64,000 nt of DNA, from positions 463 through 64,462 of the forward strand of contig JBAXUB010000002.1 of the NCBI GenBank assembly GCA_037129895.1. Reading direction: 5' to 3'. Both the position numbers and the translations under genes were made by a program. Numbering within the stretch: the stretch's first letter is position 1; every line of letters starts with the position of its first letter. The stretch is from Candidatus Tayloriibacteriota bacterium (GTDB lineage Bacteria; Patescibacteriota; Minisyncoccia; Phycocordibacterales; PALSA-1337). Below, piece after piece: positions 2,278 to 27,136 of this stretch. The notes under the pieces are model-generated. The model ran no database searches, was not told where the DNA came from, and was given only the letters and a program-made list of their open reading frames with translations.

Positions 2278-2541
2278 TTAAACTGGCTCGTACAGGCGCG
2301 TCTTTAGTGCCTTGATCTGGTCAAAGTAGGCTCTCGGTTCGACTTTGAGTTCCTGTTTCTGGTATTTCCCGAGAACAGTGTCGAGTTTGGTCGTACGTTC
2401 GAAAAGAAAGTATGCACGGCGTGGATCAGCCTTATCGACACTTTCTATCGGGAAGAACAATGAAAGAACCGCCGCACATGCAAGGTCGGAAGTCTGGTAG
2501 GTCGTATTATTATCAATTCTCATATTCATTGTTATTGCCAA
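2278..2541 (-). CDS. Small hypothetical protein (87 aa). Resembles the short proteins that commonly accompany recombinases in mobile elements.
   Basis: ORF track. Recollection of family resemblance only. Confidence 0.35.
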   Translation of the reverse strand: MAITMNMRIDNNTTYQTSDLACAAVLSLFFPIESVDKADPRRAYFLFERTTKLDTVLGKYQKQELKVEPRAYFDQIKALKTRLYEPV

Positions 2542-2620: not shown

Positions 2621-3373
2621 TTATTCCTCTCGCCAGACACGATTCGTTTTATATCTGAAGGGACCGGCAACACCGAAAGCATTTTTTATCTTTTGATTGA
2701 CGAGACGTGTAGCATCATAGACACTTCTTTTTGAATCCTTCGCCCAGTCAGCCATGTCTATAATTTCCTGTTCTTGTATCTGCACTCCCGTTTTTACTGA
2801 AAATAGTTTTTTACAAAGAAAATATTGATTAGTGTTTCTAGGAATTTCCAACTCCTTACCTTGGCTATAGACAACTCCCTTCTCATCGCTGAACGTGAGC
2901 TTACTATTCACTCGCATCTCTTTTGTAACTTCGAGTTGAAGTATCTCGTAAACCTTATTGCGTACACCGATGAACCCTTCCCAATCAATCATTGTAAATC
3001 CAACAAATTGTTTCTTTAGTTTTCCTGGGTCACGAAGAGCGACTTCTGCCAAAATTGGTAGTGAAGAATAGTGAGGACCATAAGTATAATTAATCCACTT
3101 GCCAGGTCCACGAGTAATCTTTAAAGGAATATATAAATCTTCAATGATACTGCGACGAAGGAGTGATGTTAAAAATCGGAGTACCTCCTCATCCGAGACG
3201 ATGAGAGCCATATCATCTTGAGTAAGCCAAACTCGATCAGTTTCAAGAGCCAGCGATTCGTACGCTGAAAAAATATAGTCCGCAACCTTTTTAACTTTTT
3301 CATTCGGATTGAAGCCTTCCTTGGGAAATATCTCTAGGAGAGCTTTCCAATCCTTCTCATTATTCATATTCAT
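2621..3373 (-). CDS. Hypothetical protein (250 aa).
   Basis: Long ORF co-oriented with the island genes. No motif recognised. Confidence 0.5.
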   Translation of the reverse strand: MNMNNEKDWKALLEIFPKEGFNPNEKVKKVADYIFSAYESLALETDRVWLTQDDMALIVSDEEVLRFLTSLLRRSIIEDLYIPLKITRGPGKWINYTYGPHYSSLPILAEVALRDPGKLKKQFVGFTMIDWEGFIGVRNKVYEILQLEVTKEMRVNSKLTFSDEKGVVYSQGKELEIPRNTNQYFLCKKLFSVKTGVQIQEQEIIDMADWAKDSKRSVYDATRLVNQKIKNAFGVAGPFRYKTNRVWREE

Positions 3374-3526: not shown

Positions 3527-5224
3527 CTATAATTTTTTTGGTTCTATTTTTTGATTGCTCTTAACATCATTCAAAAATATCTTTGAGCTGTGGACATTTC
3601 CACTGTAATAATACGACAATGAATTTTCCTCGAAATTATAGACCATGTTCTTTTTCAAAAATTGATCCAAAATCTCTCGTCCTTGTTTCTCGAGTAAATC
3701 TTTTTTTCCTTCTGGTAATGACTCTGCATCATAAAATTCCTGTTTAAAACCTTGATACAATTTTGGAAATGCTTCGGCTAATTTTGAAAAAACAGGAATA
3801 TGCAAATCCTCTGCTTGTGCTTCATTCTGTTTTTCAGAAAACGCATAGAAACCAAACATATAAAAATAGACTAAAATCATTGCTGGAAAATAGCCTTTGT
3901 AATTTGGCATATGTCCATTTTTTCCATCACCAAGAATTTTTTCTTTTAGCTTTTCTACAAAAGCATTATAAGCAACATTATTCTCAACTGGGTTTTCCTG
4001 CATCTCGAGAAAGTGATCATACAGCTGATGTACTTTCAACCTAAATATCTCCTCATTCTCAATCTTGTATTTACTGATAGAATTATGAAAAAGATTATAC
4101 AAAAACTTACCTGTATTTTTTCTCACATGTTCGCTTTTATCTCTAGTTTTTACACCCCAAGTGTAATACCACGAAAAGCTCTCTACCTTATCTATAATCG
4201 CTTCAAGTTGCTTTTGTTCGTAGCATGATTCTATAAAATCACCGATTTCTTTAAAGAAGATTTCAATCAGCTTATCGTTGAGTTCGTAGTTTTTTTGGTA
4301 GTGATCTTTCAAGCTCACATGATTATTCTTTTCGTATACCAACTTAAAGTATCTGGTAACAAGAGCGATGTAATTCAACTGACCTACACTGTCTAGTCGA
4401 CTAAATCTATATTCTCCAAACATAACTCGCAATAATGAACCATCTTTTTCTTTTATCATTACGTCATCAAGGCAAAAAAGGGCATTCGGATAGATTTTTT
4501 GTCCGATAAACATATTCAAAAATGACTCGCTATTCTCTAGTGATTTCGTTATGAGTCGCTTTAGAAAAAACTCTATGTGATCTAAGACATGTTTGCCCTC
4601 TTTTCTTTTTTCTACATAAAAATCTACCGTGCGACCAAAAACAAAATAGGATTCTGAGAAATGCTTTAAGAGAATGTCACTTGCAAAATCGTTCCGAAAA
4701 ATATTTTGTACATCTTTATTTTCCAAAGATAGACTAAGTAGGTTGTCGAATAAATCTATACAACCCCGAATTGTTTGAGGGTTATCCAAATGTGAATTAG
4801 ACAATGTCCCAGCTAGAATGTTTTGTAGAATAGGAATCTGTTTTTTATTAAGTCGCTTCAGTGGAATAAAGATTAAATACAAATACATCAATACTGAGAT
4901 AAACATTAAAACAGCACCGGTAAATTCAAAAATAAATGGGCATCCAAGAAAAAGACCGTCGAGTTCGCCGAAAAACGCCAAAATAATACTAGTGATAGCA
5001 ATCCACAAAGCAACCCTTCTCATTCTGTAATTTAAACGAAATCTTAACTCGCTTTTGTTTGATATAAACTCAATAAAAGCCACCACAATTGACATTGCGG
5101 TGATTGCTACACCTAAATTGTATGAGGAATGGGTTTTCCAAATTGGACTGCCTAAAATAACATTGATTGTAGTATCAAACCAACTCACTAGTCCTCCCAA
5201 AAATTGATAAAAGATTTCATGCAT
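3527..5224 (-). CDS. Membrane protein (565 aa): four N-terminal TM helices plus a roughly 440-aa cytoplasmic domain of unknown function. Last gene of the defence operon.
   Basis: Hydrophobic N-terminus in the translation. Start lies 3 nt after the stop of the DUF262/HNH gene. Confidence 0.6.
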   Translation of the reverse strand: MHEIFYQFLGGLVSWFDTTINVILGSPIWKTHSSYNLGVAITAMSIVVAFIEFISNKSELRFRLNYRMRRVALWIAITSIILAFFGELDGLFLGCPFIFEFTGAVLMFISVLMYLYLIFIPLKRLNKKQIPILQNILAGTLSNSHLDNPQTIRGCIDLFDNLLSLSLENKDVQNIFRNDFASDILLKHFSESYFVFGRTVDFYVEKRKEGKHVLDHIEFFLKRLITKSLENSESFLNMFIGQKIYPNALFCLDDVMIKEKDGSLLRVMFGEYRFSRLDSVGQLNYIALVTRYFKLVYEKNNHVSLKDHYQKNYELNDKLIEIFFKEIGDFIESCYEQKQLEAIIDKVESFSWYYTWGVKTRDKSEHVRKNTGKFLYNLFHNSISKYKIENEEIFRLKVHQLYDHFLEMQENPVENNVAYNAFVEKLKEKILGDGKNGHMPNYKGYFPAMILVYFYMFGFYAFSEKQNEAQAEDLHIPVFSKLAEAFPKLYQGFKQEFYDAESLPEGKKDLLEKQGREILDQFLKKNMVYNFEENSLSYYYSGNVHSSKIFLNDVKSNQKIEPKKL

Positions 5225-5227
5225 AAT

Positions 5228-6391
5228 TTATCGATTTCCTTTTGCTCGATTGTGTGTTTTACATAACATCTCACAATTTTTTACATCAGTAGCACCACCC
5301 TTACTCCATGCGGCAACATGGTCGGCATCCATATCTGTAAGATTCCAAATCTTATCTTTATTCGCGTCGTGACCAATCGCGCAATGCGAACAATTTGAGA
5401 CGCCTTTCTTTTTTGCTGTAGCAGTTTGAGCTTCATAAACTGAACGCTTTGTTGAGTCCTCAAATACTCGAACTTCGAGTAGTCTTGTTTCAACTTCTCC
5501 TCCTAAAACATACTCGAAAATACCCTTGCGACTTTTTACAAAGCCATCGGCGTAAAGTTTCTGGACCGTAGCGGACACTTTAGTGGGGTTATAGTTTTTC
5601 TTATGATAGGTTTGATAGAGTCTATTCCACTCAAGACCTCTCATTTCACTCTCAACATCAATGAAGACGGTTGAGGCCCAGTCAATAACAGTATTGAAAT
5701 GTTTTTTTAGTTCGTTAATATTTTTATCATTACGGTGTTTACTCATATAGCTATCAATTGATCCTTCAGAAACCCAATCAAGTGCCCGTTCAAGATATGC
5801 CTGTCGATTAAGTTCACCATCAATATACGTACTCCATTTTTGGACATTTGCATTCTGACTATTACTAAATTCTTCACGTGCGAGCGTGACAAATGGTCCA
5901 GAATAGACGGCGTTAAGAATTTCTTGTGGTTTTAATGGCACTCCAGCAATGTTGATTGTTTTAAACCAATCCTTGATCTCAGGTTCATCGCCTTCACATA
6001 GATAAACTAGCAGCTTTGTGTTCATTATCTGTTCACGTTGGCTCTCAGCCATACCACTATAGTATTGCTCATGTCCATTTTTATCTTTAACGGCAAATTT
6101 ACCAGTTACAAAACGACCAATACTCGTGATACGTTGCTGACCGTCCAGTACTTCAAACTTTTCCTTGCCGACTTGGTTGAAATAAATTAAACCGATAGGA
6201 TAACCTTTCGAAATTGATTCAATCACAGCAACGTCACGCTTGCCATCAGCATAAATATAATTACGCTGATACTCTGGCTGAATAGTTAATTTACCAGATA
6301 GACCAAACAACCCTTTTCCTTCAAGTTCATTATAGACGAAACCGTCGCAAACTTCTTTGATAGTAATATTATTTTTTAAAGTTGTTTTCAT
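5228..6391 (-). CDS. DUF262 (ParB-like, GmrS-type) N-domain fused to a C-terminal HNH endonuclease. Putative GmrSD/SspE-like defence nuclease.
   Basis: DUF262 motifs [10 protein letters not shown] and [11 protein letters not shown]-terminal HNH: [14 protein letters not shown]...[12 protein letters not shown]...[15 protein letters not shown]. Confidence 0.8.
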
Positions 6392-6393
6392 AA

Positions 6394-7542
6394 CTATTTT
6401 TTCTTATGTCTAATAATAATTCTCTTATAAATCGGACTTTTATTTACTGCCGGCCCGTTCCACATCATCTTCTTTCCTTCTGTAAGTATTTCAATTTTTT
6501 TAGCTCCCAGTTCCGCACCATGCTCACCATTATTAAAGCTTCCAATAATCTCAAATTGCCCAGGTGAATATTTATCAAGAAAACTAATGGGAACACCCAT
6601 AAGACCTTTATAATCACTTGGGATATTTTTAACTAAGGATACTTCTATAGCATCGTAATTATCATATTTATCAAATGGTTTCTTTGTTACAAATTTTATG
6701 ACATCCGATTCAGGCATAAGTGGGAACGGCTGATGAAGTCGCCCATGGTCAAGATTTGTAAACCAACGCACACCCTGGACTCGTGTTATATATACTTTTT
6801 TACCCTTTTCATCAGTTTTTATTTCACGTACCTGATCCAAATTCGCCACAGCTTCTGGAATCTCATAAAACATTGCACCGCCATTAACCCTTGCGTTATT
6901 TCCCAACCAGACCTTATTCTTTTTGATCATTGAAAAAACTTCTCTGTAAGTTATTGCATTAAGATTGCCTATAATTAAAAATTGCTTTTTATTTTCAAAA
7001 ATTTGTGTTACATATTCACGAAATAAGCTAAATGGAGGATTAGTAACTACAATGTCAGATTGCTTGAGTAGTTCGACACATTCATCACTTCTAAAATCAC
7101 CGTCACCTTCAAGTGGAGTCCATTCGTTATTTTTATTTGATCTAAGCTGCTTTGCAATATCTTCTAGCGTAAAAGAACCGTCACCATCCACATCACCAAC
7201 ATCATTGATAATTAATTTATTAGCGACAATTTTTGGTCGCCCCTTGACTGGTTTAAGGGTAACATCATCACCGAATAGTGTTATTTGGGTGTTTGCGACT
7301 GGGGAAGGCTTGTAACTAGTTGAGATAAGTCTTTTTAGTCCTAAACGATTAAAATTTAAGACAAAATAGCGAAAGAAATTACTTTCGAATGGGTCATCAC
7401 AATTACTATAAACAACCTTACCTTTGAAAGTGTTTGGATTATATTCGAGATAAGACTCGACTTCTTTTTGAATATCAGAAAATTGAGTGTAAAACTCATC
7501 ATTTTTTGCATTCCTTGCCTTTGTAAGATTTTTATTTGCCAT
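6394..7542 (-). CDS. N6-adenine DNA methyltransferase of the M.EcoRI family, carrying an inserted EF-hand-like loop.
   Basis: KNDEFYTQF near the N-terminus. [13 protein letters not shown]...[40 protein letters not shown] aligns closely, from memory, with M.Eco[35 protein letters not shown]. The insertion [16 protein letters not shown] matches the canonical DxDxDG EF-hand loop. Confidence 0.8.
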
Positions 7543-7545
7543 ATA

Positions 7546-8322
7546 TTAAAATTCAATCGAAGTTATGTACTCCCTGAACATCTTCACCTTCTTGCTATCC
7601 TCACCGTTTATAAGGAAAGGTTCAATATCCTTCGCAAGTTCGTCAAAATCAAAGTCAACTATCTTTTCGAGTAACACCTTCTTTAATTCAACTCCATTCT
7701 TGATACCAAGCTTCATCTCGAGATATTCATAGTTCGGCTTTGTCTGGGGGATAAGAAATACGATATCAAAGAAGTCTCGACCCTTTGCTCGAGAACGATT
7801 GACGGCAGCATAAAACTTTTGCGAGAGCAGTATGTCGATAGGTGTAGTAAATATCTGCGTGAAGACATCAAACTTGTTGAGTATCTTGGTATCCTTCTTG
7901 TAGTCAAAAGCATGAGGAACTGTGTCGATCTGAATCATTATCTTTTCCTCTTGGAGATCAGACATATCATTATCAAACAACACCTTCGGCATTCTGATGT
8001 ATGAACGATATGCCCCCTTGAATACATTCTTTATCTCGACCTCGTAGCCTTGGAGTTCAAGACCCTTCTTTACTTCGTTAGCGAGATCAGCAAACTGTTC
8101 TTCCGTAAGCTTGAAATTATCAAAATCAAGATCCTCGGAGAATCTACTGTTGTTGTAAACAATTCGCAGTGTAGTGCCACCAAGGAATATGAGGTCCTGT
8201 GCATACTTTGAATTAAAGATGATTTCAAGAATCTTATACTGTAAATACTCTCTCAAGATATTCCGCTTGAAAGGCTTCTGATTATCCGGATAGTATTGTT
8301 CTATATTCTTGAGGCTAAGCAT
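7546..8322 (-). CDS. AbiEii/AbiGii-family nucleotidyltransferase toxin (type IV TA, abortive infection).
   Basis: FLGGTTLRIVYNNSRFSEDLDFD motif. Positioned downstream of the AbiEi gene. Confidence 0.75.
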   Translation of the reverse strand: MLSLKNIEQYYPDNQKPFKRNILREYLQYKILEIIFNSKYAQDLIFLGGTTLRIVYNNSRFSEDLDFDNFKLTEEQFADLANEVKKGLELQGYEVEIKNVFKGAYRSYIRMPKVLFDNDMSDLQEEKIMIQIDTVPHAFDYKKDTKILNKFDVFTQIFTTPIDILLSQKFYAAVNRSRAKGRDFFDIVFLIPQTKPNYEYLEMKLGIKNGVELKKVLLEKIVDFDFDELAKDIEPFLINGEDSKKVKMFREYITSIEF

Positions 8323-8965
8323 GGTTTATGTATGTTAAAAACTTCTTGGCTCGCTTTTCGAGAGCCTTGCTGTTAAATGCCAAAAGATACTTATTAAACT
8401 TTTCCATATTTATCTTTTCCTTAGCTTCAGGAATATTGAATCGTACTCCCTCAAATGATTCGCTATCGTTGATCTTTGAATTAAAGTGTAAGTAGTCAAG
8501 GATAGCCTTTTCTATTTCAGCCACTTGATAGTGATGACCATCATGTTCTCGGAGTTCATATCCGAACATAAGTTCAGGCTGTACATGTCTGTAGATAAAA
8601 TCGCCAACAGGGGTCTTCATGTTCTTGGTACGTTGAGAAGTGACTGACGTTACTCCGTAGACTGCTTCAGGAATTAATCCGTAAATAGATAGCGCCATTT
8701 CAAGTGAGATGTATGATGGTTCGTATACTCTATTTGCGATAGTGAATAGCGTAGGTTCATTGATCTGTAAATCAGAAAAGATGTAAAAACCCTTGCAGAT
8801 CTTCTTTACATAATCCTTCTTTTGCCACTCGCTCAATCTTTGCTTATGGAACGACAAATCCACCTTCTCGATATCCTTTATTGAGAAGATTGGGTAGTTC
8901 TTTAGTTGTGTCTTTAAGTCTAAATACTGCATTTTAATCAATATTATTCCGCTTTTTAGGAACAA
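8315..8965 (-). CDS. AbiEi-family antitoxin / transcriptional regulator.
   Basis: PSYISLEMALSIYGLIPEAVYGVTSVTS...AILDYLHF pattern. Overlaps the AbiEii gene by 8 nt. Confidence 0.7.
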   Translation of the reverse strand: MFLKSGIILIKMQYLDLKTQLKNYPIFSIKDIEKVDLSFHKQRLSEWQKKDYVKKICKGFYIFSDLQINEPTLFTIANRVYEPSYISLEMALSIYGLIPEAVYGVTSVTSQRTKNMKTPVGDFIYRHVQPELMFGYELREHDGHHYQVAEIEKAILDYLHFNSKINDSESFEGVRFNIPEAKEKINMEKFNKYLLAFNSKALEKRAKKFLTYINHA

Positions 8966-11223: not shown

Positions 11224-12510
11224 TTAATTTTCTTTATTTATCTCGAGTAGCCATTCATGTAGGGGTTTAAAGGAAATTGTCAGCCCATCTTTTTCTACCT
11301 CACGCTTTTCATCCCAGGTAAGCATAGTAAGGTTCTTTACATTCAATTCACCGCTTGCTTCCACCAGTGCTTTTATTTCTCTCTGTTCAACATCTGAATT
11401 TATTGATTCAAAGCACACCTGCACAAGCTCTGTTACTACATGTCCTTTGATAAGCAAAAAATCAATTTCTCGATCATTACGAGTCTTGTAGTAGAACAAT
11501 TCACGATTCGGTTTGTTGCCTCTTTTAACAAGTTCTATAAAAACAAGGTTTTCCATGAGCTTTCCTTTATCTGGTGAGTGTTGGACAGCTTTTGCAAGGA
11601 CAAAACCATTATCAACCACAAATATTTTGCGAGGCGATTTTATTCTAGTAACAGACTTTGGAGAATACTGATGCAACGAGAAAACAAGGTATGCCTCTTC
11701 AAGGTAATCTATATATTTTTCAACAGTCGTTGTACTCTTCAGATTTAATACGTCCATTATTTTTCGGACCGTGTACAAATTTGAGAAATTATTTATGAGA
11801 TGTGAACCAAGATTTCCTACTTGAGTAGAAAATTTCACTTTATGTCTCTTCACCACATCTTTAAATAGGAGTGCATCAAACAATACACCTAGATAATCAC
11901 GGGGGTCGGCATTGTTTACGGCAACTTCTGGAAAACCACCATTCACCATGTAGTTCTCCATAAGGTTGAGTAACTCTCCGTGATTCTTTGGAAGCATTCT
12001 GTATTCAGAATTAGTATCAAATTTCTTTGCTTTCAAAAATTCATTGAAATCAAATGGCAATATTTCTATTGGCATATGTCTACCCGTTAAGTGTGTTGCG
12101 AGTTCTTTTGAAAGTAGGTGGGCATTAGATCCTGTAAGGACGAGGTTATATCCTTCACGATGTAAACGGTTCACGAAAAGTTCCCAGTTCGGCAGGTTTT
12201 GTATTTCATCAAAAAGAATAGTTTTGACTTGACCATACTCCGCATGTAACTCCTTCATCAATTCATTGGTATTTATTCCACCATTACTTGCTATGACTTC
12301 ATCATCAAAGTTGAAGTACATAAATGGTCGATCTCTAAGGAGTACCAAAGAAAAGACAGATTTTCCCGCTCGACGAGGACCAAGTATCACTTTTATTAAA
12401 TCAGAATTAAGCCATTTCCGTGCAAATGGTTCTTTACTTCTTTGTATGTAAGCAAGCGATAAAAGCTGTTCTTTTTGCTCTTTTTGATTGGATACTATGG
12501 TTTTTAGCAT
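11224..12510 (-). CDS. AAA+ ATPase of the DUF4143/AAA_14 (COG1373) family.
   Basis: Walker A GPRRAGKS, Walker B ILFDEIQ, and a long C-terminal DUF4143-like domain. Confidence 0.7.
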   Translation of the reverse strand: MLKTIVSNQKEQKEQLLSLAYIQRSKEPFARKWLNSDLIKVILGPRRAGKSVFSLVLLRDRPFMYFNFDDEVIASNGGINTNELMKELHAEYGQVKTILFDEIQNLPNWELFVNRLHREGYNLVLTGSNAHLLSKELATHLTGRHMPIEILPFDFNEFLKAKKFDTNSEYRMLPKNHGELLNLMENYMVNGGFPEVAVNNADPRDYLGVLFDALLFKDVVKRHKVKFSTQVGNLGSHLINNFSNLYTVRKIMDVLNLKSTTTVEKYIDYLEEAYLVFSLHQYSPKSVTRIKSPRKIFVVDNGFVLAKAVQHSPDKGKLMENLVFIELVKRGNKPNRELFYYKTRNDREIDFLLIKGHVVTELVQVCFESINSDVEQREIKALVEASGELNVKNLTMLTWDEKREVEKDGLTISFKPLHEWLLEINKEN

Positions 12511-18925: not shown

Positions 18926-21900
18926 CTATATACCTATGAAATTAAGTAGCGATGACCACACCCTCAAGAAGAATCCCTTCTTCTCTGCAGGCTTTACTGG
19001 CTTAACAACATCGATGGCTAGAGGAAATGCAGCGTTAGATGAAACAAGATAATATCTTCCCGGTTCACTAGGAGCAAGGATAGAAAGTGTAACCGCCAGC
19101 TTACCTTTTGTGCTGGTAAAATCGATAGGATTATTTTGATAATACGCTACAGTCTTTACATCCTTAAGCGGCACTAGGTTAATAGTCATCTTCTGACCTA
19201 CGTCGACTGTAATTCTCTGCACTAGAGTATCGACTGACTCATTAGCAATAGATACAGGAATCGTAGATGTACCGACGACTACCTGATATAGTCCCGGCAC
19301 TGTCGATGTGGCAGGGATCACTATCGGGACTGTACGTAATCTGACAACATCCCCAGCAGTTATGAGCCCTACACCAGCCATGAACTTCTTGAGTTCTGGA
19401 GATGAATTGAGTACCCTAGAAATATTTTCTGGTGCTGGATCGAATAGGAAAGCTCGTATCTCATTCTTGAATGAAAATGATCCATTACCTTCACCAAACT
19501 TCGGAAGACTTCCCAATGCCAATTTAGAAGGAATGATGAACGGCACAGACACCTTTCTCAGTAAGCCTGGTGCAAATAATCTGAGCAGGCTTTCCGAATC
19601 AAGAGTCGAGCCACCGGAATAGGGCCTATTCGGATTTGCAGGAACACTCGGCGCAACAGAATTCGATCTAATAACTGGCACATATCTACCCACAACAGCA
19701 ACACTACCACTTCTACCACTTGAATATACCGGTAACTCTGGACAACCCGTATTGTTACCAGTACCTGGATTGGCGATCGGTTCACTATATGAAGAATCAG
19801 TAAGAGAGATCGATCCAGCATCACCACCCTTTCCACAGGATGTAGAGTTACCACCATTAGATTGAACGATCGAACTTAGAGGACTACTGTATGAATTTAC
19901 TATCAGCAACGTACCTCCATTACCACCATTAGTTGAACCATCTGCACCATTTGATACGATCGCTGCAGTTGTTGATGTTGATATTGCGATATTACCTCCA
20001 TTACCACCGATAGAGCCACCAAGAGAAGCGCTAGCAGAAGATGTCCCTGTAATTACCAAATTTTCAAGTCCAAAGTTATATCCATTACTTCCTCCGTATG
20101 CACCATTTCCGGAGATTGATCCAGTCAAAGTATTATCTGTACCATCCACAATCACCCCATTCATTCCTATATACAGATCATTAGTTACACTCTCAGTAAG
20201 AGTCGTAGAGGCAAACAAAACTACTGCTTCATTGGCCGATGGTATCCTACCACTCGGTATATCTAAGCTAGTATCCGTAAACCAATTTTGCACATTGCTC
20301 CACAAACCATCTCCTGAAATATTACTAAAAGATATTGAATTCGGATATGAATAATATACGATCGAACCGAGGGTTGTACCACCTAGAGGTGCTGCAGATA
20401 GACCATATACATAAGAATTGCCGTTAACTGTACCTTGGTTTTTTGATGAATCATTGAAATAAGCATTAGCAGAAGTGACTCCAATATTTACCGAATGATC
20501 ATTGAATGACGTATCCCCTTTTATGTATCCAGTACTACTTGCAAAATCATTGAATACCCACCTTAGGATAGTACTACCTGAGTTATCTTTAGTCAGACCA
20601 GAAACATGGCCTGTTCCTCGGAATATTTCAGATCCAGAAAAACTTATTTCTCCAGATACAGCCACGAGATTATTATATGTAAGATCACCGTTTACTGTTC
20701 CTGAATTACTCGATAGATAATTTATGGAAACATTACCATTAACTGTTCCAGAATTTAGTGATTGATCATTCAATATCACAGTTCCATTCACGGTTCCAGA
20801 ATTTGTTGATGTTCCATTGAACGCTATATCTCCGACAATTATTCCGCTATTATCAATACGTCCGGCCACAGTTACTGGTGTTATTGAACTTGTTATAATG
20901 ATACCACCAGATTTGTTCGTAAGATTATTCGAAAATGTACCACCCGTTACCGTAGCGCCTGATTCTATGGTTGTACTACCAAGTGTAGTTTTTGTGTCGC
21001 TAGTTAGAGATCCGGTAACATGGATCGACCCACTCAATGTGGATGAACTAACTACAATATTATTCAAACTAGACACTAGACCAGTAGCTGTAACATTCTG
21101 TAATGAGAGGTTATTGGTACTACTACCTGTTATATTCCCACTAATTGAATAATAATGTCCTGCACCATCATCACCACGCAATGTAGTTGAAGTCGACACA
21201 GAACAATTACCAACTATATTCGCAGTTAGGTAATAATACGGCCTAGCAGCTTCATCTAGAGGTGTAGAGCAGTCTGTACTTATTGGCTGACTATTGTCAT
21301 ATGTAAACGAGACAGACTTTTCTGAAATATTATCTGTAGGATCAGAATGATTGCTTATACTCTTCAGGAATATCGTATGCGAACCGGCAACAGGCTTTGG
21401 TATATCACTGCCATTATTCGAACAGACTACCGCCTGATAATTGCCGCTATCCATCTTGTACTGACACGTATCATTCGTGCCCCATGAAATACTTGGAGAC
21501 CACCTCGTTATAGTTCCAGCCGCAGGAGAAGTGATCGATAGTACAGGTACGCCAGATCCACCACTGCCGATGATCGCATTCCACGCACTGAATATTCCAT
21601 TATTCAATGCTTGAAACGCATTCGTTGCTAGAGAATATGTAGCACCAGCCAAATTGACGATTGCCCCATTCACTGATTGGACGATCCAATGGACTCCATT
21701 ATGAGTAAAATCTGAAACAACTGTGAATACACCAGCCGTATATTGACGAGTAACATAACCTGTCACAGTACCATCATTCGTCGTGTCAGGACCAGAAAAC
21801 GTAGCATTACCGACGATCGTACCTAAACTAGAGTTCGTAGAAGAAGCACTAAATAATGCTGCTCCTGTCGATGTGCTGGTCACAGTCAAATATATCGAAT

Positions 21901-24900
21901 TTGAAGACGTAGCTAAGAATGTAGCTGAATCTACTACAGCTGAACTCGTAGTCGTAGAAATATTTCCACTCGTAATAGTTACACTATCTCCACCAGATGG
22001 AACGAACGTAGAATGAACTGTTGCCAATGAATCTGTCCACCAATTATTGACATCATTCCATTTACCAGTAACTCCATGTCCCGGAGCACTATCATTGAAG
22101 TACAGTCCAGTATAGTTATGATACGTAATCTGACCACTAACTACGCCACCGATTGGCCTAGCAACTGGTGAATATACATCTGCATCCCCTGTAATCGTGC
22201 CTAGATTTCTAGAATAATTATTGAGTATAACGTTACCGACTATAGTCGCACCGACATTGTTCGTACTAGAAGCATTGAATACAGCATCACCTTTGGTACT
22301 TCCAGAATTGGTACTTGATGCATTGAAAACCCAGTTGGTAATTTGGGAATTATTCGAATCATAAATATTTCCAGTAACAAAGCCCGTGCCTAGGAAACTG
22401 TCAGTTCCAGCAAATGATACTATACCAGCAGATCCAGTTAACATATTGAACTGTGCAGTACCAGTAACTGTACCCGAGTTTGTAGAAAAAGCGTTGAATA
22501 TCGCATTACCATTGACTGTACCGGTATTCGAGGATGTCGCATTAAAGGTAAATGTGCCGCCAGCAGTATTTATAATAGAATTATTGATCATACTCCCCAT
22601 TGCTGGATTATTGGCATTGATCGTACCATTATTCAAAACCTTTCCAGTCAAAGTCACAGATCCTGCAGAAATACTGCCGCCAGCATTGATCGTTGTACTT
22701 GCAAGTGAACCTGTACCATCTCCACTTATTACTCCTGTGACACTAACTGAACCAGTGACACTCGTCGAACTACTGATGATGAGGGCGCCTGGACCAGCTC
22801 CTGTCGTAGAAACCGCTCCTGTCACGATTATATTTGAAAGTGTTACACCATTATTATTGGAAGTAATATTTCCAGTGAGAGTATTTCCATTACCAGATAA
22901 TATAACGCCAGCGATAACAACATTGCAATTTCCAGAAATACTTGATCCTAACGCGTAGTTTCCTGCAAAAGCAAGAGACCCGCAAGAACTGATGGTCCCT
23001 GGTATTAGAGGAAATGCACCACCCACAAAGGAACCGAGATCAGTTCCGTTTGTAATAAAGTGTGCTAGTGCAGATAATGTGGTATTTGTCGTAGTTAGAC
23101 TGCCGGAATATGCTAGCCCGAGCGTAGACGTCGCGGAATATATATTGTTAGTCAAATTCAAATTTGTACCTAACATGTTTATGGTACCTCCTGTACCTGC
23201 ACTCGTCACATTGACTGTCGTCGATGTAGAAATCGTAATTATTCCACCACTACCAACTGATCCACTTGAGGCTCCAGCGGATCCAACGCCAGCACTTCCA
23301 GGTATGAGAGCCAGAAGACCCGTCGATGTTGCATTCGTAATAGAGATCGAACCAGTATCTCCACCATTACCAGCTGTACCAGATCCAGATTTGTTTCCAC
23401 CGGATCCTCCTTGCGAGGTTGTTGATCCTACAGTTGAACTCGCAGTTATCATAATATACCCTCCTCTACCTCCAGTGAAAGCTGTATCACCGTTACCACC
23501 ACTTGATAGTATCGACTGAATACTCGAACTAGAAATAACCAAATTACCTCCGTTTCCACCCACACTGCCAGAACCAACTGATCCATTGGCACTTACGCCA
23601 TTTGCAAAATTCGCGATAGTAATATTCCGGATAGTTGTCGTGCCATAGGCTGAAGCTCCAGCTGTAGTACTAGCAGCTGTAACAGCATAATTACTATTAC
23701 TTGAAGTTGCAGAAATAGTGTAATGGTTGTTACTTCCATCTATAGTTACGTTGTTCGCTTGAACATTGAAACATGTACCCGATATACCAGAAATGCTGGC
23801 TGACAAAGTATATACACCAACAAATGGCATTTTTCCACAACTAGAAATTGATCCAGGTATCAACGGAAACGCTCCGCCAGAATATGCGCCATAATTTGTA
23901 CCATTGGCAACTAGTGAAGCGAGAACTGACGTTGTTGCATTCGATACACCGAGAGAACCTGTATATGAAAGTATGAGAGATGAACTCGCTGTATATGTGC
24001 TATTGGAAAGATTCAAATTAATCCCGGAAATATTGATAGTACCACCAGCACCTATAGCAGAAATGCTCGCTGTTGTAGATGTAGCAACCGTAACTACTCC
24101 ACCAGCACCCAGTGAAGTACCAGTACCACCAGATGCAGAAATACTGAGCGGATCACTCGAGATACTAGTATATGATATTACTATTATACCATTAGCACCA
24201 TTACCTGTAATGATACTATTACTACTCAAACTTCCACCACCACCAGCACCATAAAGTCCGCCATTTGCACCCCATCCTCCAGTATTTCCGCAAGCATTAC
24301 CCCCACCTCCTCCTCCGCCACCAGAACCATGTGTCGAATCCCATTCAATTCCAGTACTTCCTATACCAGGCATGTACGGTGTCATACCATTACAAGCACC
24401 ATAACTCCCACCACCACCACCACCATTCGTTCCAGCACCACCTGTATATGGGCTTGAGCTTACACCCGCGGTACCACCACCAGCACCAAGATAGTTATCT
24501 CCACCAGATGTTCCGTTTGAATTACTAACACTTGCAGCATTGGCGCCTCCGCCATTACCCCCACCTCCTCCACCACCACGATTGCCAAACGTCGAACTAC
24601 CTCCATTACCTCCTTTTCCACGTGGTCCAGCCGCACCACCTCCACCACCAGCTGCCCATGACCCAGGTGTACCACCTCCATTACCACCAGAATATTTGAC
24701 TGTTCCTACACCAGCACTTGATTGACCACCCAAACTACCAGTTGAAATACCACCGCTTCCACCTTTTGCACCCACCCTTACTGCGGATCCTGAAATCGAT
24801 GCACAATTACTTGATGAATTACAGAAATACGAATCGGTTCCTGCGGCAGGAACAACATCTCCATTAAGACTTCCAAGACTGCCTTGTCCAACTCTATAGC

Positions 24901-27136
24901 TAACCGATGAACCAGCAGTTAAAACTAAATTTGATACTTTTGAATATCCACCACCTCCACCACCTCCAGCATTAGACGCGACCCCATACGTACCTCCACC
25001 ACCTCCGCCGATAACCTCGACAGTATTAGACGCACTATTCCAATCTGTTGGTACACTCCAAGAAGCTCCAGAGGTCAAATATATTCTCTTTGCAGTACTG
25101 ACAGAAGCAGAACCTCCTATAATCGTTGAGCTACCTACAATAATTACATTTCCAGCAGCCCCACCGACGCCTCCGTCACTATTACCACCATTTGCTGATA
25201 CCATAGCGATCGTGGTCGAAGAAACTATAACTGTACCACCAGCACCTCCTGCACCAGAGGACCCGGCTGAACCGTTCGCATTCACACCATTTGTAAAATT
25301 GGTAAACGTGAGATTCTGTATAGTTGTCGTACCATAAGCTGGAGCTCCAACTGTAGTACTTGCAGCAATCACGGCATAATTTGTATTACCGACGTTCGCA
25401 TTAACCGAATAATGATTCACACTCCCATCTATGGTGACATTATTGGCCTGAACATTGAAACAATTTCCATCAATATTTGAAATACTCTGAGTCAAAGTAT
25501 ATGTCCCCGCATACGAGATCGTACCACAAACATTTATAAGTCCTGGAAACAGTGGAAGTGTACCCCCAGAAAATGCACCATAATTTGTACCATTCACTAC
25601 GAGTGATGATAAGACTGATGTTGTAGCATTGGTCGTGGTTAATAGACCCGTATATGAGAGACTGAGTGTTGAACTCGCCGTGAATGATTTACCAGTAAAG
25701 TCAAGACTCGCTCCAGCAATATTGATAGTGCCACCTGTTCCAATAGCGGAGATACTGTCAGTGGTCGATGTTGCAACTGTTACTGTACCTCCAGACCCCA
25801 TCGATGTGCCAGTACCACCATTCGTAGTTATGCTACCTACTACAGAATTACCAGTGATTGAGATCGTCCCTGCGGCTGAACCGGACCCTGATACTGTACC
25901 CGTATATTGTGTATTGTAAATATTCAATACTTCAGCCGCAGAAAGAGGTCTAGACCAGATAGCAACTTCATCTAATGACCCATTGAAATATTCATAACCA
26001 CCTTTTCTACCTATCCATCCCATAGATGCCCCTCCATAATCTATTCCGGAATTACCACAGCCAGACGTACCAGCATTTACACCATCTATGTATATATTTA
26101 TGAGTGAGCCACTATAGACTCCAACAAGATTATGCCAGTTTCCATCAAGTATATTTATACTTCCATTTAACAAATAACATGATCCCCAACCACCATCATT
26201 AACTATGAACGCGGGACGCGTTCCTGAGAAAAATAGATTATAACCATCAGTACTATTGCTGTATGACACCATTTGCGGGTAACTAGAATTCTGTGAACCA
26301 CCTTTAACCCACACAGAAATACTAAGTGCTGAACTCGGTTTCAGTGCTGAAGCATTGGCGCCATAGGAAACACCCGAGCTATTCACAGAGATCGCCTTAT
26401 CTAATGCACCAGCCACCCCATAAGTAACAACCCCCTCTGATGTACCTGTAAATCCTTGACCCGAGCTATCGGTGAATGTTCCCGAGCTTTCATTCAAGTG
26501 ATACAGAAGGACATTACCAGTCATATCTATCCATCCATTAGAAACAGCACTATTTGGAAATGGTGACTTTACAGAGAGAGGCGATCCCCCATCTGACTTT
26601 ATACTACCACTTATGGTACTCGCATTTATTGAAATTATTCCACCAACTCCACCACTTGAACCCGAACCACCATTGGATATCACGTTGCCCGACATCGTTG
26701 ATGTTGATATCGTTATACTGCCCCCAGACCCACCTGATATACTCGAACTGTTATTGCCACTTGCATTCACTCCGTTGCTGAAATTCACAAATGAAATATT
26801 CAATATAGTCGTCGTTCCATACGCATTACCACCATCAGCACTATTCGTAGCGATGACTGCATATCCAGTATTACCTGATGTCGTCGTAGCTGAAAATCCT
26901 GCACCATTTATAGTCACACCGTTGGATGTAACTATAAAGCACGGTCCTGTAGTAGTAGCTATGCCAATATTCTGCGTTAGTGTATACGTTCCAGCCGAGG
27001 CCAATGTTCCACACGTAGTAATGTTACCCGGAGAAAGTGTGGCAGCATGAACACTCTGAGTCGACATAAAAACAAAAAAGAATGCAGAGGCCGCAATCGT
27101 GAAAATTCGTAGATATTTCGTGGTATTTCTTTGCAT
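18926..27136 (-). CDS. Giant secreted surface protein (2736 aa). Contains a signal peptide, at least four parallel beta-helix-type repeat modules (G(T/V)YTL(T/S)...CF(I/N)V(T/Q)(S/A)N(G/N)VTI(N/D)G), two SxN(S/T)GTVxG repeat blocks, a LamG/ConA-like domain and a roughly 150-aa poly-Gly tract.
   Basis: Single 8.2-kb ORF. N-terminal ...FVFMSTQSVHA|ATL. LamG-like stretch WHNLVGVYSGSLINIYIDGVNAG...GSLDEVAIWSRPLSAAEV. The internal DNA repeats are diverged, about 70% identical by eye. Confidence 0.85.
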   Translation of the reverse strand: MQRNTTKYLRIFTIAASAFFFVFMSTQSVHAATLSPGNITTCGTLASAGTYTLTQNIGIATTTGPCFIVTSNGVTINGAGFSATTTSGNTGYAVIATNSADGGNAYGTTTILNISFVNFSNGVNASGNNSSSISGGSGGSITISTSTMSGNVISNGGSGSSGGVGGIISINASTISGSIKSDGGSPLSVKSPFPNSAVSNGWIDMTGNVLLYHLNESSGTFTDSSGQGFTGTSEGVVTYGVAGALDKAISVNSSGVSYGANASALKPSSALSISVWVKGGSQNSSYPQMVSYSNSTDGYNLFFSGTRPAFIVNDGGWGSCYLLNGSINILDGNWHNLVGVYSGSLINIYIDGVNAGTSGCGNSGIDYGGASMGWIGRKGGYEYFNGSLDEVAIWSRPLSAAEVLNIYNTQYTGTVSGSGSAAGTISITGNSVVGSITTNGGTGTSMGSGGTVTVATSTTDSISAIGTGGTINIAGASLDFTGKSFTASSTLSLSYTGLLTTTNATTSVLSSLVVNGTNYGAFSGGTLPLFPGLINVCGTISYAGTYTLTQSISNIDGNCFNVQANNVTIDGSVNHYSVNANVGNTNYAVIAASTTVGAPAYGTTTIQNLTFTNFTNGVNANGSAGSSGAGGAGGTVIVSSTTIAMVSANGGNSDGGVGGAAGNVIIVGSSTIIGGSASVSTAKRIYLTSGASWSVPTDWNSASNTVEVIGGGGGGTYGVASNAGGGGGGGYSKVSNLVLTAGSSVSYRVGQGSLGSLNGDVVPAAGTDSYFCNSSSNCASISGSAVRVGAKGGSGGISTGSLGGQSSAGVGTVKYSGGNGGGTPGSWAAGGGGGAAGPRGKGGNGGSSTFGNRGGGGGGGNGGGANAASVSNSNGTSGGDNYLGAGGGTAGVSSSPYTGGAGTNGGGGGGSYGACNGMTPYMPGIGSTGIEWDSTHGSGGGGGGGGNACGNTGGWGANGGLYGAGGGGSLSSNSIITGNGANGIIVISYTSISSDPLSISASGGTGTSLGAGGVVTVATSTTASISAIGAGGTINISGINLNLSNSTYTASSSLILSYTGSLGVSNATTSVLASLVANGTNYGAYSGGAFPLIPGSISSCGKMPFVGVYTLSASISGISGTCFNVQANNVTIDGSNNHYTISATSSNSNYAVTAASTTAGASAYGTTTIRNITIANFANGVSANGSVGSGSVGGNGGNLVISSSSIQSILSSGGNGDTAFTGGRGGYIMITASSTVGSTTSQGGSGGNKSGSGTAGNGGDTGSISITNATSTGLLALIPGSAGVGSAGASSGSVGSGGIITISTSTTVNVTSAGTGGTINMLGTNLNLTNNIYSATSTLGLAYSGSLTTTNTTLSALAHFITNGTDLGSFVGGAFPLIPGTISSCGSLAFAGNYALGSSISGNCNVVIAGVILSGNGNTLTGNITSNNNGVTLSNIIVTGAVSTTGAGPGALIISSSTSVTGSVSVTGVISGDGTGSLASTTINAGGSISAGSVTLTGKVLNNGTINANNPAMGSMINNSIINTAGGTFTFNATSSNTGTVNGNAIFNAFSTNSGTVTGTAQFNMLTGSAGIVSFAGTDSFLGTGFVTGNIYDSNNSQITNWVFNASSTNSGSTKGDAVFNASSTNNVGATIVGNVILNNYSRNLGTITGDADVYSPVARPIGGVVSGQITYHNYTGLYFNDSAPGHGVTGKWNDVNNWWTDSLATVHSTFVPSGGDSVTITSGNISTTTSSAVVDSATFLATSSNSIYLTVTSTSTGAALFSASSTNSSLGTIVGNATFSGPDTTNDGTVTGYVTRQYTAGVFTVVSDFTHNGVHWIVQSVNGAIVNLAGATYSLATNAFQALNNGIFSAWNAIIGSGGSGVPVLSITSPAAGTITRWSPSISWGTNDTCQYKMDSGNYQAVVCSNNGSDIPKPVAGSHTIFLKSISNHSDPTDNISEKSVSFTYDNSQPISTDCSTPLDEAARPYYYLTANIVGNCSVSTSTTLRGDDGAGHYYSISGNITGSSTNNLSLQNVTATGLVSSLNNIVVSSSTLSGSIHVTGSLTSDTKTTLGSTTIESGATVTGGTFSNNLTNKSGGIIITSSITPVTVAGRIDNSGIIVGDIAFNGTSTNSGTVNGTVILNDQSLNSGTVNGNVSINYLSSNSGTVNGDLTYNNLVAVSGEISFSGSEIFRGTGHVSGLTKDNSGSTILRWVFNDFASSTGYIKGDTSFNDHSVNIGVTSANAYFNDSSKNQGTVNGNSYVYGLSAAPLGGTTLGSIVYYSYPNSISFSNISGDGLWSNVQNWFTDTSLDIPSGRIPSANEAVVLFASTTLTESVTNDLYIGMNGVIVDGTDNTLTGSISGNGAYGGSNGYNFGLENLVITGTSSASASLGGSIGGNGGNIAISTSTTAAIVSNGADGSTNGGNGGTLLIVNSYSSPLSSIVQSNGGNSTSCGKGGDAGSISLTDSSYSEPIANPGTGNNTGCPELPVYSSGRSGSVAVVGRYVPVIRSNSVAPSVPANPNRPYSGGSTLDSESLLRLFAPGLLRKVSVPFIIPSKLALGSLPKFGEGNGSFSFKNEIRAFLFDPAPENISRVLNSSPELKKFMAGVGLITAGDVVRLRTVPIVIPATSTVPGLYQVVVGTSTIPVSIANESVDTLVQRITVDVGQKMTINLVPLKDVKTVAYYQNNPIDFTSTKGKLAVTLSILAPSEPGRYYLVSSNAAFPLAIDVVKPVKPAEKKGFFLRVWSSLLNFIGI

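Follow-up and report, generated by a model that had tools for sequence, protein, structure and literature searches.

How should five tightly packed genes in a patescibacterial genome be read, as one defence system or as several modules standing side by side? The question is raised by a stretch of 64,000 nucleotides (the window) from contig JBAXUB010000002.1, part of a metagenome-assembled genome (MAG) of Candidatus Taylorbacteria, Patescibacteria. Its positions 3527 to 8965 hold an AbiE pair, a DNA methyltransferase (MTase), a nuclease and a large membrane protein that we call MEM (proteins MEI6304504-08). We find that the five-gene cluster is not a new system; it is a restriction-modification (R-M) operon with a probable new accessory gene, MEM, next to an ordinary AbiE pair. 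A preliminary description of this DNA had proposed a single defence operon, and its five minus-strand open reading frames (ORFs), with their coordinates and spacings, are exactly as it gave them. Its domain calls for AbiEi, AbiEii, EcoRI_methylase and DUF262 with HNH are likewise borne out by profile searches (Pfam, PADLOC). The features are as follows.

8315-8965, minus strand: AbiEi antitoxin/transcriptional regulator, 216 aa (PADLOC AbiEi PDLC02241, E 2e-61, residues 12-211)
7546-8322, minus strand: AbiEii nucleotidyltransferase toxin, 258 aa (PF08843, E 5e-18; PADLOC PDLC02313, E 7e-94, full length)
6394-7542, minus strand: M.EcoRI-family N6-adenine DNA methyltransferase, 382 aa (PF13651, E 5e-124, profile positions 1-345 of 345)
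5228-6391, minus strand: DUF262-HNH restriction endonuclease (Type II-class), 387 aa (PADLOC REase_II PDLC03418; PF03235 and PF01844)
6131-6145, minus strand: DGQQR motif of DUF262, nuclease residues 83-87, invariant in both nuclease clades (alignment)
5246-5392, minus strand: HNH catalytic core CxxC...DH...N...CxxxC...N, nuclease residues 334-382, residues invariant across clades
3527-5224, minus strand: orphan membrane protein MEM, 565 aa, without a match in four profile libraries
4859-5128, minus strand: MEM transmembrane (TM) core, residues 33-122, three TM helices with conserved polar residues S33, N36, S79 and E87 (Kyte-Doolittle and conservation)
3527-4858, minus strand: MEM cytoplasmic all-alpha ARM/HEAT-like solenoid and small conserved C-terminal beta element, residues 123-565

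The methylase and the nuclease had been described as a pairing that fits no system that could be named. The nuclease, however, matches the PADLOC REase_II profile PDLC03418 along its length (E 7e-82, residues 6-386 on profile positions 5-371 of 372), and the methylase, encoded 2 nt upstream, matches the MTase_II profile PDLC03297 at full length (E 1e-102). A scan of viral contigs (IMG/VR) yielded 184 relatives of the nuclease, of which 80 loci were taken, 75 of them with enough upstream sequence; an M.EcoRI-family methylase precedes the nuclease on the same strand in 71 of these 75 (95%). Given the full-length profile match and the recurrent adjacency of the methylase, the pair is no longer unnameable. 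As in Type II systems, a separate MTase gene adjoins the endonuclease gene and, through PDLC03418, the endonuclease falls in a known Type II REase family. As judged from profiles and gene order, the pair belongs to a catalogued kind of Type II R-M, the word catalogued resting on the PADLOC profile, and forms a widespread, horizontally mobile and self-standing two-gene unit. It stands as such, without MEM, in Pseudohongiella, in a 3.4-Mb genome, in groundwater contigs of the candidate phyla radiation (CPR) and in a marine MAG. MEM was found in none of the 80 viral-contig loci, nor in the five distinct contexts to which the nuclease itself led (L042-L052), and on this count already the five genes do not make one defence system.

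Homologues of the nuclease fall into more than 8000 clusters. The best 120 of them, from Patescibacteria and from Gammaproteobacteria (Pseudohongiella among the latter), measure 386-423 aa, nearly all 387, and are 75-91% identical; such identity across the two groups, among these best 120 matches, is a sign of massive recent horizontal spread. Two clades, A and B, are about 40% identical in the nuclease and 50-57% identical in the accompanying methylases, so that R and M diverge in step, as expected for cognate pairs. Within the same loci the nuclease is better conserved than the methylase (82-88% versus 65-86% identity), whereas R-M systems usually show the opposite. The MTase alignment stops 1.25-1.45 kb upstream of the nuclease in about ten viral-contig loci (L093-L099, L103, L104), which suggests an extra gene between M and R.

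As to its domains, the nuclease combines PF03235 GmrSD_N/DUF262 (E 3e-22) with PF01844 HNH (E 6e-6). DGQQR and the residues C334, C337, D357, H358, N372, C373, C377 and N381 are invariant across both clades. DGQQR has been described as the GmrS NTPase signature (PMC4619093). A DUF262/ParB-like NTPase domain with this motif intact is unusual in a Type II-class nuclease and hints at a dependence on nucleoside triphosphates. The enzyme had been likened to GmrSD and SspE; in the strict sense this does not hold, since its nuclease domain is PF01844 instead of DUF1524 and no PADLOC model of GmrSD, BrxU or SspE matches it. Searched with its profile, the PDB sequences gave McrA (6ghc) and Gme HNH (4h9d), in the HNH region only, and weakly BrxU (7p9k, E 0.15); phmmer against the same sequences gave nothing for nuclease or methylase. 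A single-sequence AlphaFold model of the nuclease reached a predicted local distance difference test score (pLDDT) of 32, too low for use. Since its own methylase is a constant companion, the nuclease most likely acts on unmodified DNA. Palindromes in the 64-kb window show no significant depletion, whether with an AATT core or other (GAATTC, 25 observed versus 26.6 expected), and the literature searched held no biochemical description of an M.EcoRI-family/DUF262-HNH pair.

If the pair is self-sufficient, what is MEM doing behind it? Linkage was counted over 31 informative distinct MEM loci. In 21 of these an intact R-M operon is followed directly, at its 3' end, by a co-oriented MEM gene, and the operons are of at least five R-M kinds. 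The gene directly upstream of MEM is distributed thus:

DUF262-HNH gene: 17 of 31 loci; the MTase is also visible in 11, wherever the contig reaches far enough
Decayed HNH remnant: 2 of 31 loci (L008, L010)
Type III R-M: 2 of 31 loci (L005, Mod-Res-MEM; L027, Res-286 aa-MEM)
C5-MTase-R.HinP1I-small HNH: 1 of 31 loci (L021)
N6_N4 MTase-REase_II (PDLC03572): 1 of 31 loci (L026)
No R-M adjoining MEM: 8 of 31 loci (L001, L003, L004, L013, L024, L030, L031, L032)

The link between the membrane protein and R-M, which the preliminary description had suspected, stands, and it is the interesting part: methylase, DUF262-HNH nuclease and MEM follow one another in 17 distinct loci, and MEM accompanies four other R-M kinds. 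That description had also allowed that the pair might prove a catalogued R-M kind and the membrane gene unrelated to it, or not conserved with it; the pair is indeed catalogued, whereas the membrane gene is linked and recurs with the other two. From the end of the upstream gene to the start of MEM the distance is -4 to +30 nt, except for 78 nt in L054. In the window the junctions from AbiEi to MEM are an 8-nt overlap followed by gaps of 3, 2 and 3 nt, and a Shine-Dalgarno (SD)-like AAAGGAAAT lies within the last nuclease codons and precedes the ATG of MEM. A promoter and terminator scan of the cluster found promoter-like sites to be scarcer than in shuffled sequence, and it gave no informative internal terminator. 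Co-transcription of the five genes is plausible from their layout. GC content across the cluster is 0.32-0.38, versus 0.41-0.46 in the flanks.

MEM and its partners do not travel as a fixed set. On the one hand, MEM is 76-87% identical whichever nuclease clade precedes it; on the other hand, the MEM paralogue of L054 is only 23% identical, although the clade-A nuclease before it shares 72% identity with that of the window. Between L014 and L015 the nuclease is 96% identical (synonymous divergence, dS, 0.66), MEM 85% (dS 1.47) and the methylase 76%, and these unequal identities and dS values mark the cassettes as mosaics. By these comparisons MEM and R-M partners are exchanged in both directions. 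The arrangement in L021 (5888-8000), a C5 methylase, an R.HinP1I-family nuclease and a free-standing 114-aa HNH protein followed by MEM, suggests that MEM may be tied to the HNH module and not to the whole enzyme; the small protein shares 33% identity with the C-terminal part of the window nuclease. In L005 (6438-6890) a 150-aa PycTM-like two-TM protein (PADLOC E 3e-7) comes after Mod-Res-MEM, with no cyclase gene nearby.

Likewise, the position 3' of the same nuclease is filled elsewhere by other genes, either SIR2-HerA (L051/L052) or PDC-S46. In L048 (6173-8341; also L049 and L050) a 722-aa protein directly after the nuclease matches PADLOC PDC-S46 end to end (E 3e-262); compared with the MEM profile it is unrelated (hhalign probability 0.2%). 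The position behind the nuclease is, to judge by its occupants, a defence slot. Upstream of the methylase, L048-L050 carry a 65-aa C-protein-like helix-turn-helix (HTH) gene.

The AbiE pair has a different standing. Its two profile matches and the 8-nt overlap make AbiEi-AbiEii a bicistron of the AbiE type IV toxin-antitoxin kind. The NCBIfam TAA_AbiEi score of AbiEi is under its cut-off, and translation of AbiEi may begin about 11 codons downstream of the annotated TTG start; the 90% cluster of AbiEii has 112 members in Patescibacteria MAGs. No window-like AbiE was found beside other loci with the MTase, nuclease and MEM trio, where only a 24%-identical AbiEii appears in L018, and none in the 80 viral-contig nuclease loci. 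A pair of AbiEi and AbiEii genes also stands ahead of M-R in L051/L052 and is not detected by tblastn with the window AbiE proteins; in L048-L050 the small HTH gene occupies the AbiE position. Since AbiE is absent from other trio loci and a non-homologous AbiE stands at that position in L051/L052, AbiE is separate from M-R. The gene order marks it as an independent neighbour and ordinary AbiE member, not a component of the R-M/MEM set, and a single system of five genes fails on this side as well. In L051 (2547-9163) and L052 (marine MAG GCA_002376945.1) the full order is AbiEi-AbiEii-M.EcoRI-like-DUF262-HNH-SIR2-HerA, with gaps of at most 10 nt; an R-M core common to the window is there flanked by different defence modules.

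Turning to the protein itself, MEM has no match in Pfam, PADLOC, NCBIfam or PHROGs, and a Pfam scan of 30 distant relatives returned no meaningful family, so far as these libraries go placing MEM in no known family. Its homologues form 87 clusters at 90% identity, with 58 representatives among 1.84 billion 50%-clusters; nearly all measure 530-670 aa, and they are spread patchily over Patescibacteria and Gammaproteobacteria MAGs. The AlphaFold (AF2) model (pLDDT 82, predicted template modelling score 0.79) has helices at residues 2-24, 35-57, 66-88 and 96-119. The earlier count of four TM helices is right for the model and too high for the conserved protein: only three segments, 37-55, 71-93 and 104-122, are strongly hydrophobic and conserved (Kyte-Doolittle), and the first modelled helix is of low confidence and absent in many homologues. 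Judging from the K/R-rich loops at 56-68 and 120-140, the C-terminal ~440 residues are cytoplasmic; there the model shows an all-alpha solenoid and then the small beta element. Conservation within MEM peaks in TM-A, the first of the conserved TM helices (0.79 versus 0.53-0.67 elsewhere), and the polar and acidic residues S33, N36, S79 and E87 of the membrane core are invariant. The conservation of the TM helices together with these residues points to a membrane core with a function beyond anchoring.

The ratio of nonsynonymous to synonymous divergence (dN/dS) is 0.02-0.07, which makes MEM a strongly constrained, functional gene. Recent transfer as the cause of the flat ~80% identity of MEM was considered and rejected on account of saturated dS (1.3-6.5); given this saturation, the flat identity reflects strong purifying selection and mosaic cassette histories.

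How might these pieces work together? That the five-gene cluster is modular we hold, taken alone, to be very probable. The fuller reading, which we favour as probable and no more, is a tightly packed defence island of three modules: AbiE, an autonomous M-R pair, and MEM, an R-M-linked inner-membrane protein that serves as a defence accessory, either effector or sensor. The M.EcoRI-family N6-adenine methylase would protect host DNA, and the DUF262(ParB-like NTPase)-HNH enzyme would cut DNA that is unmethylated. Given its orientation and operonic spacing, MEM is probably expressed from the R-M promoter. We infer for MEM a role in defence, with a trigger and an action at the membrane: its alpha-solenoid would be a binding or sensing module for a phage factor, or for a cue of ongoing or failing restriction, and would control the conserved three-helix core with its invariant polar and acidic residues. 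The membrane core would then be the effector, for example through ion leak or membrane depolarisation as in abortive infection (Abi), or through interference with DNA entry. The outcome would be an abortive-infection-like second line behind restriction. A bolder form, which we put forward tentatively, is that MEM is a new class of portable R-M-coupled membrane effector or sensor at the end of Type II and Type III operons. Under this form it may sense failure, inhibition or activity of restriction and then depolarise the membrane or block DNA entry.

Several observations weigh against the three-module island with an R-M-linked MEM. Fold comparison recognised no enzymatic or pore-forming fold in MEM; MEM is absent from PADLOC 2.0, and the literature searched gave no link of such a protein to R-M. 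Eight of the 31 loci have no adjoining R-M, among them L030, where only a Vsr gene lies upstream. Streamlined CPR genomes are as a rule tightly packed, and for this reason close spacing says little about functional coupling. In L008 (7-648) and L010 (7794-7991) an intact MEM is immediately preceded by HNH remnants that share 62-71% identity with the C-terminal part of the window nuclease, and from this MEM is not strictly dependent on the nuclease. P0221 (L053), a distant MEM homologue of ~23% identity, closes a glycosyltransferase/epimerase polysaccharide cluster; this context suggests that the ancestral role of the MEM family may lie in the cell envelope and not in immunity, and it hints that the family is not exclusively R-M-linked. 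L008 and L010 look like decayed or recombined R-M cassettes, the remnant in L008 being fused in frame to a glycosyltransferase ORF, and the gene after P0221 in L053 has a weak AbiEi_4 match.

What else could MEM be? A somewhat unlikely alternative makes it an autonomous single-gene defence or superinfection-exclusion protein that shares the island slot and has no functional tie to R-M. The occupation of the same slot by SIR2-HerA or PDC-S46 would fit, as would the low GC of the whole region, a MEM alone in L004 next to an insertion sequence (IS) element and a Type I R-M, one in a prophage-like MTase-rich region (L001) and one between integrases (L055). Yet MEM is nearly always the last gene of an R-M operon and not merely near one, with five R-M kinds and with 23%-identical paralogues, a position-specific pattern that simple co-localisation in an island does not predict. 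An unlikely opposite is that MEM is an obligate third R-M subunit, for example a membrane tether that places the nuclease at sites of DNA entry (phage injection, competence pili), the three genes then forming one machine. Its co-orientation at -4 to +30 nt behind the nuclease in most loci speaks for such a tie, and so do the SD-like motif inside the end of the nuclease gene, the alpha-solenoid fold typical of protein-protein scaffolds, the distant paralogue again found behind a DUF262-HNH gene in L054, and the HNH-only genes or remnants adjoining MEM in L021, L008 and L010. Almost all M-R pairs, however, do without MEM (0/80 viral-contig loci; 0/5 contexts in L042-L052), and MEM persists alone or beside decayed nuclease genes. 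It also follows unrelated nucleases (Type III Res, R.HinP1I and the other REase_II family), which makes a specific subunit interface unlikely.

Distinctly less credible is that MEM is a non-defence protein of the cell envelope or of housekeeping type, carried as cargo on small mobile islands with R-M genes. The position of P0221 at the end of its glycosyltransferase/epimerase cluster, the glycosyltransferase ORF before MEM in L008, the NTPase and Rossmann-type neighbours in L013 and the lack of a recognisable effector fold would be accounted for; the 21 loci of 31 with MEM directly behind an intact R-M operon would not, and the tiny, patchy family has a pattern typical of horizontally moving accessory genes and not of envelope housekeeping. 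Some weight remains for roles of MEM beyond those considered. The last alternative concerns the nuclease: it might be a modification-dependent Type IV enzyme like GmrSD, with the adjoining methylase unrelated or in another role. DUF262 with DGQQR is common to GmrSD, BrxU and SspE, BrxU 7p9k is weakly matched (E 0.15), and the N-terminus matches the PADLOC models NsnA, HEC-05 and HEC-06. We consider this very improbable in view of the 95% adjacency to a co-oriented M.EcoRI-family methylase, the co-divergence of R and M, the full-length Type II REase profile match and a nuclease domain that is PF01844 HNH, not DUF1524; moreover, an enzyme that cuts the product of its neighbour would presumably be suicidal.

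Should MEM be a true modifier or backup of R-M, restriction-based immunity would gain a new accessory layer, found chiefly in Patescibacteria, a group whose defences have hardly been explored. An ordinary R-M system would become an immune module of two layers, and MEM would also represent a new membrane-protein fold family. Regardless, the DUF262-HNH/M.EcoRI-family pair stands out for its extreme abundance and its unusual conservation, and a Type II-class enzyme with a ParB-like NTPase domain merits characterisation. The negative result matters too: the five-gene "operon" is not to be reported as a new system.

Around the cluster the window holds further genes. Downstream of MEM are a 250-aa orphan ORF without a family match (2621-3373, minus strand), 153 nt from MEM with no predicted terminator between, and an 87-aa DUF5659 protein (2278-2541, minus strand). 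The 250-aa ORF was considered as a cluster member and dropped, as it was not found beside MEM in any other locus. A further defence-type gene lies 2.3 kb upstream of the cluster (11224-12510, minus strand); it encodes a 428-aa AAA_14 and DUF4143 ATPase, a full-length match to the PADLOC phage-defence candidate PDC-S01 (E 1e-97). A single ORF of 2736 aa occupies 18926-27136 on the minus strand; giant proteins of this kind are typical of CPR genomes. Elsewhere the window consists of ordinary chromosomal sequence that includes SerRS, TopA, Dus and DinB-like genes.

How does the locus compare with known systems? The AbiE pair, with both genes, the 8-nt overlap and full profile matches, shows nothing unusual for an AbiE type IV toxin-antitoxin. 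With Type II R-M systems that use HNH (beta-beta-alpha-Me) nucleases, the M-R pair shares adjacent, co-oriented and separate M and R genes and full-length profile matches; it differs by the N-terminal DUF262/ParB-like NTPase domain of its nuclease with an intact DGQQR. This N-terminal domain is what the nuclease has in common with GmrSD, BrxU and SspE, along with a C-terminal His-Me finger nuclease and a defence-island context. It is set apart from them by PF01844 HNH with a Cys4 zinc finger, by the lack of a PF07510 (DUF1524) match and by matching no PADLOC model so named. Furthermore, those enzymes are characterised by a modified DNA target and no cognate methylase, whereas the window nuclease appears to have a constant, co-diverging methylase partner.

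MEM is nearest in concept to the R-M-linked latent effectors PrrC and RloC and to the TM Abi effectors (PycTM, CBASS 2TM/4TM, Kiwa KwaA, SjdB), with none of which it has sequence, fold or partner genes in common. The TM Abi effectors offer a short N-terminal TM bundle and a defence-island context; what they lack is the 440-aa cytoplasmic solenoid. At E <= 0.01 neither MEM nor P0079 and P0085 matched the PADLOC models of the PycTM, CBASS TM, Kiwa and Zorya effectors, and the window neighbours include no cyclase, KwaB or ZorB-like genes. SjdB is the 4-TM protein of the San Juan system, and LdgA and DdgA are Patescibacteria-restricted defence genes (PMC12366544). SIR2-HerA and PDC-S46 resemble MEM in their position directly 3' of a DUF262-HNH gene, and the proteins are unrelated. 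A further comparison is with PrrC, which sits in the Type Ic EcoprrI locus, and RloC, both soluble ABC-ATPase anticodon nucleases that act as R-M-linked latent effectors. The interaction of EcoPrrI with Stp is mentioned in PMC12707154. Unlike PrrC and RloC, MEM sits in the membrane, lacks ATPase and nuclease motifs and resembles them in neither sequence nor fold; what it shares with them is the place of a non-R-M gene in, or at the end of, an R-M operon, and the concept of a second-line effector.

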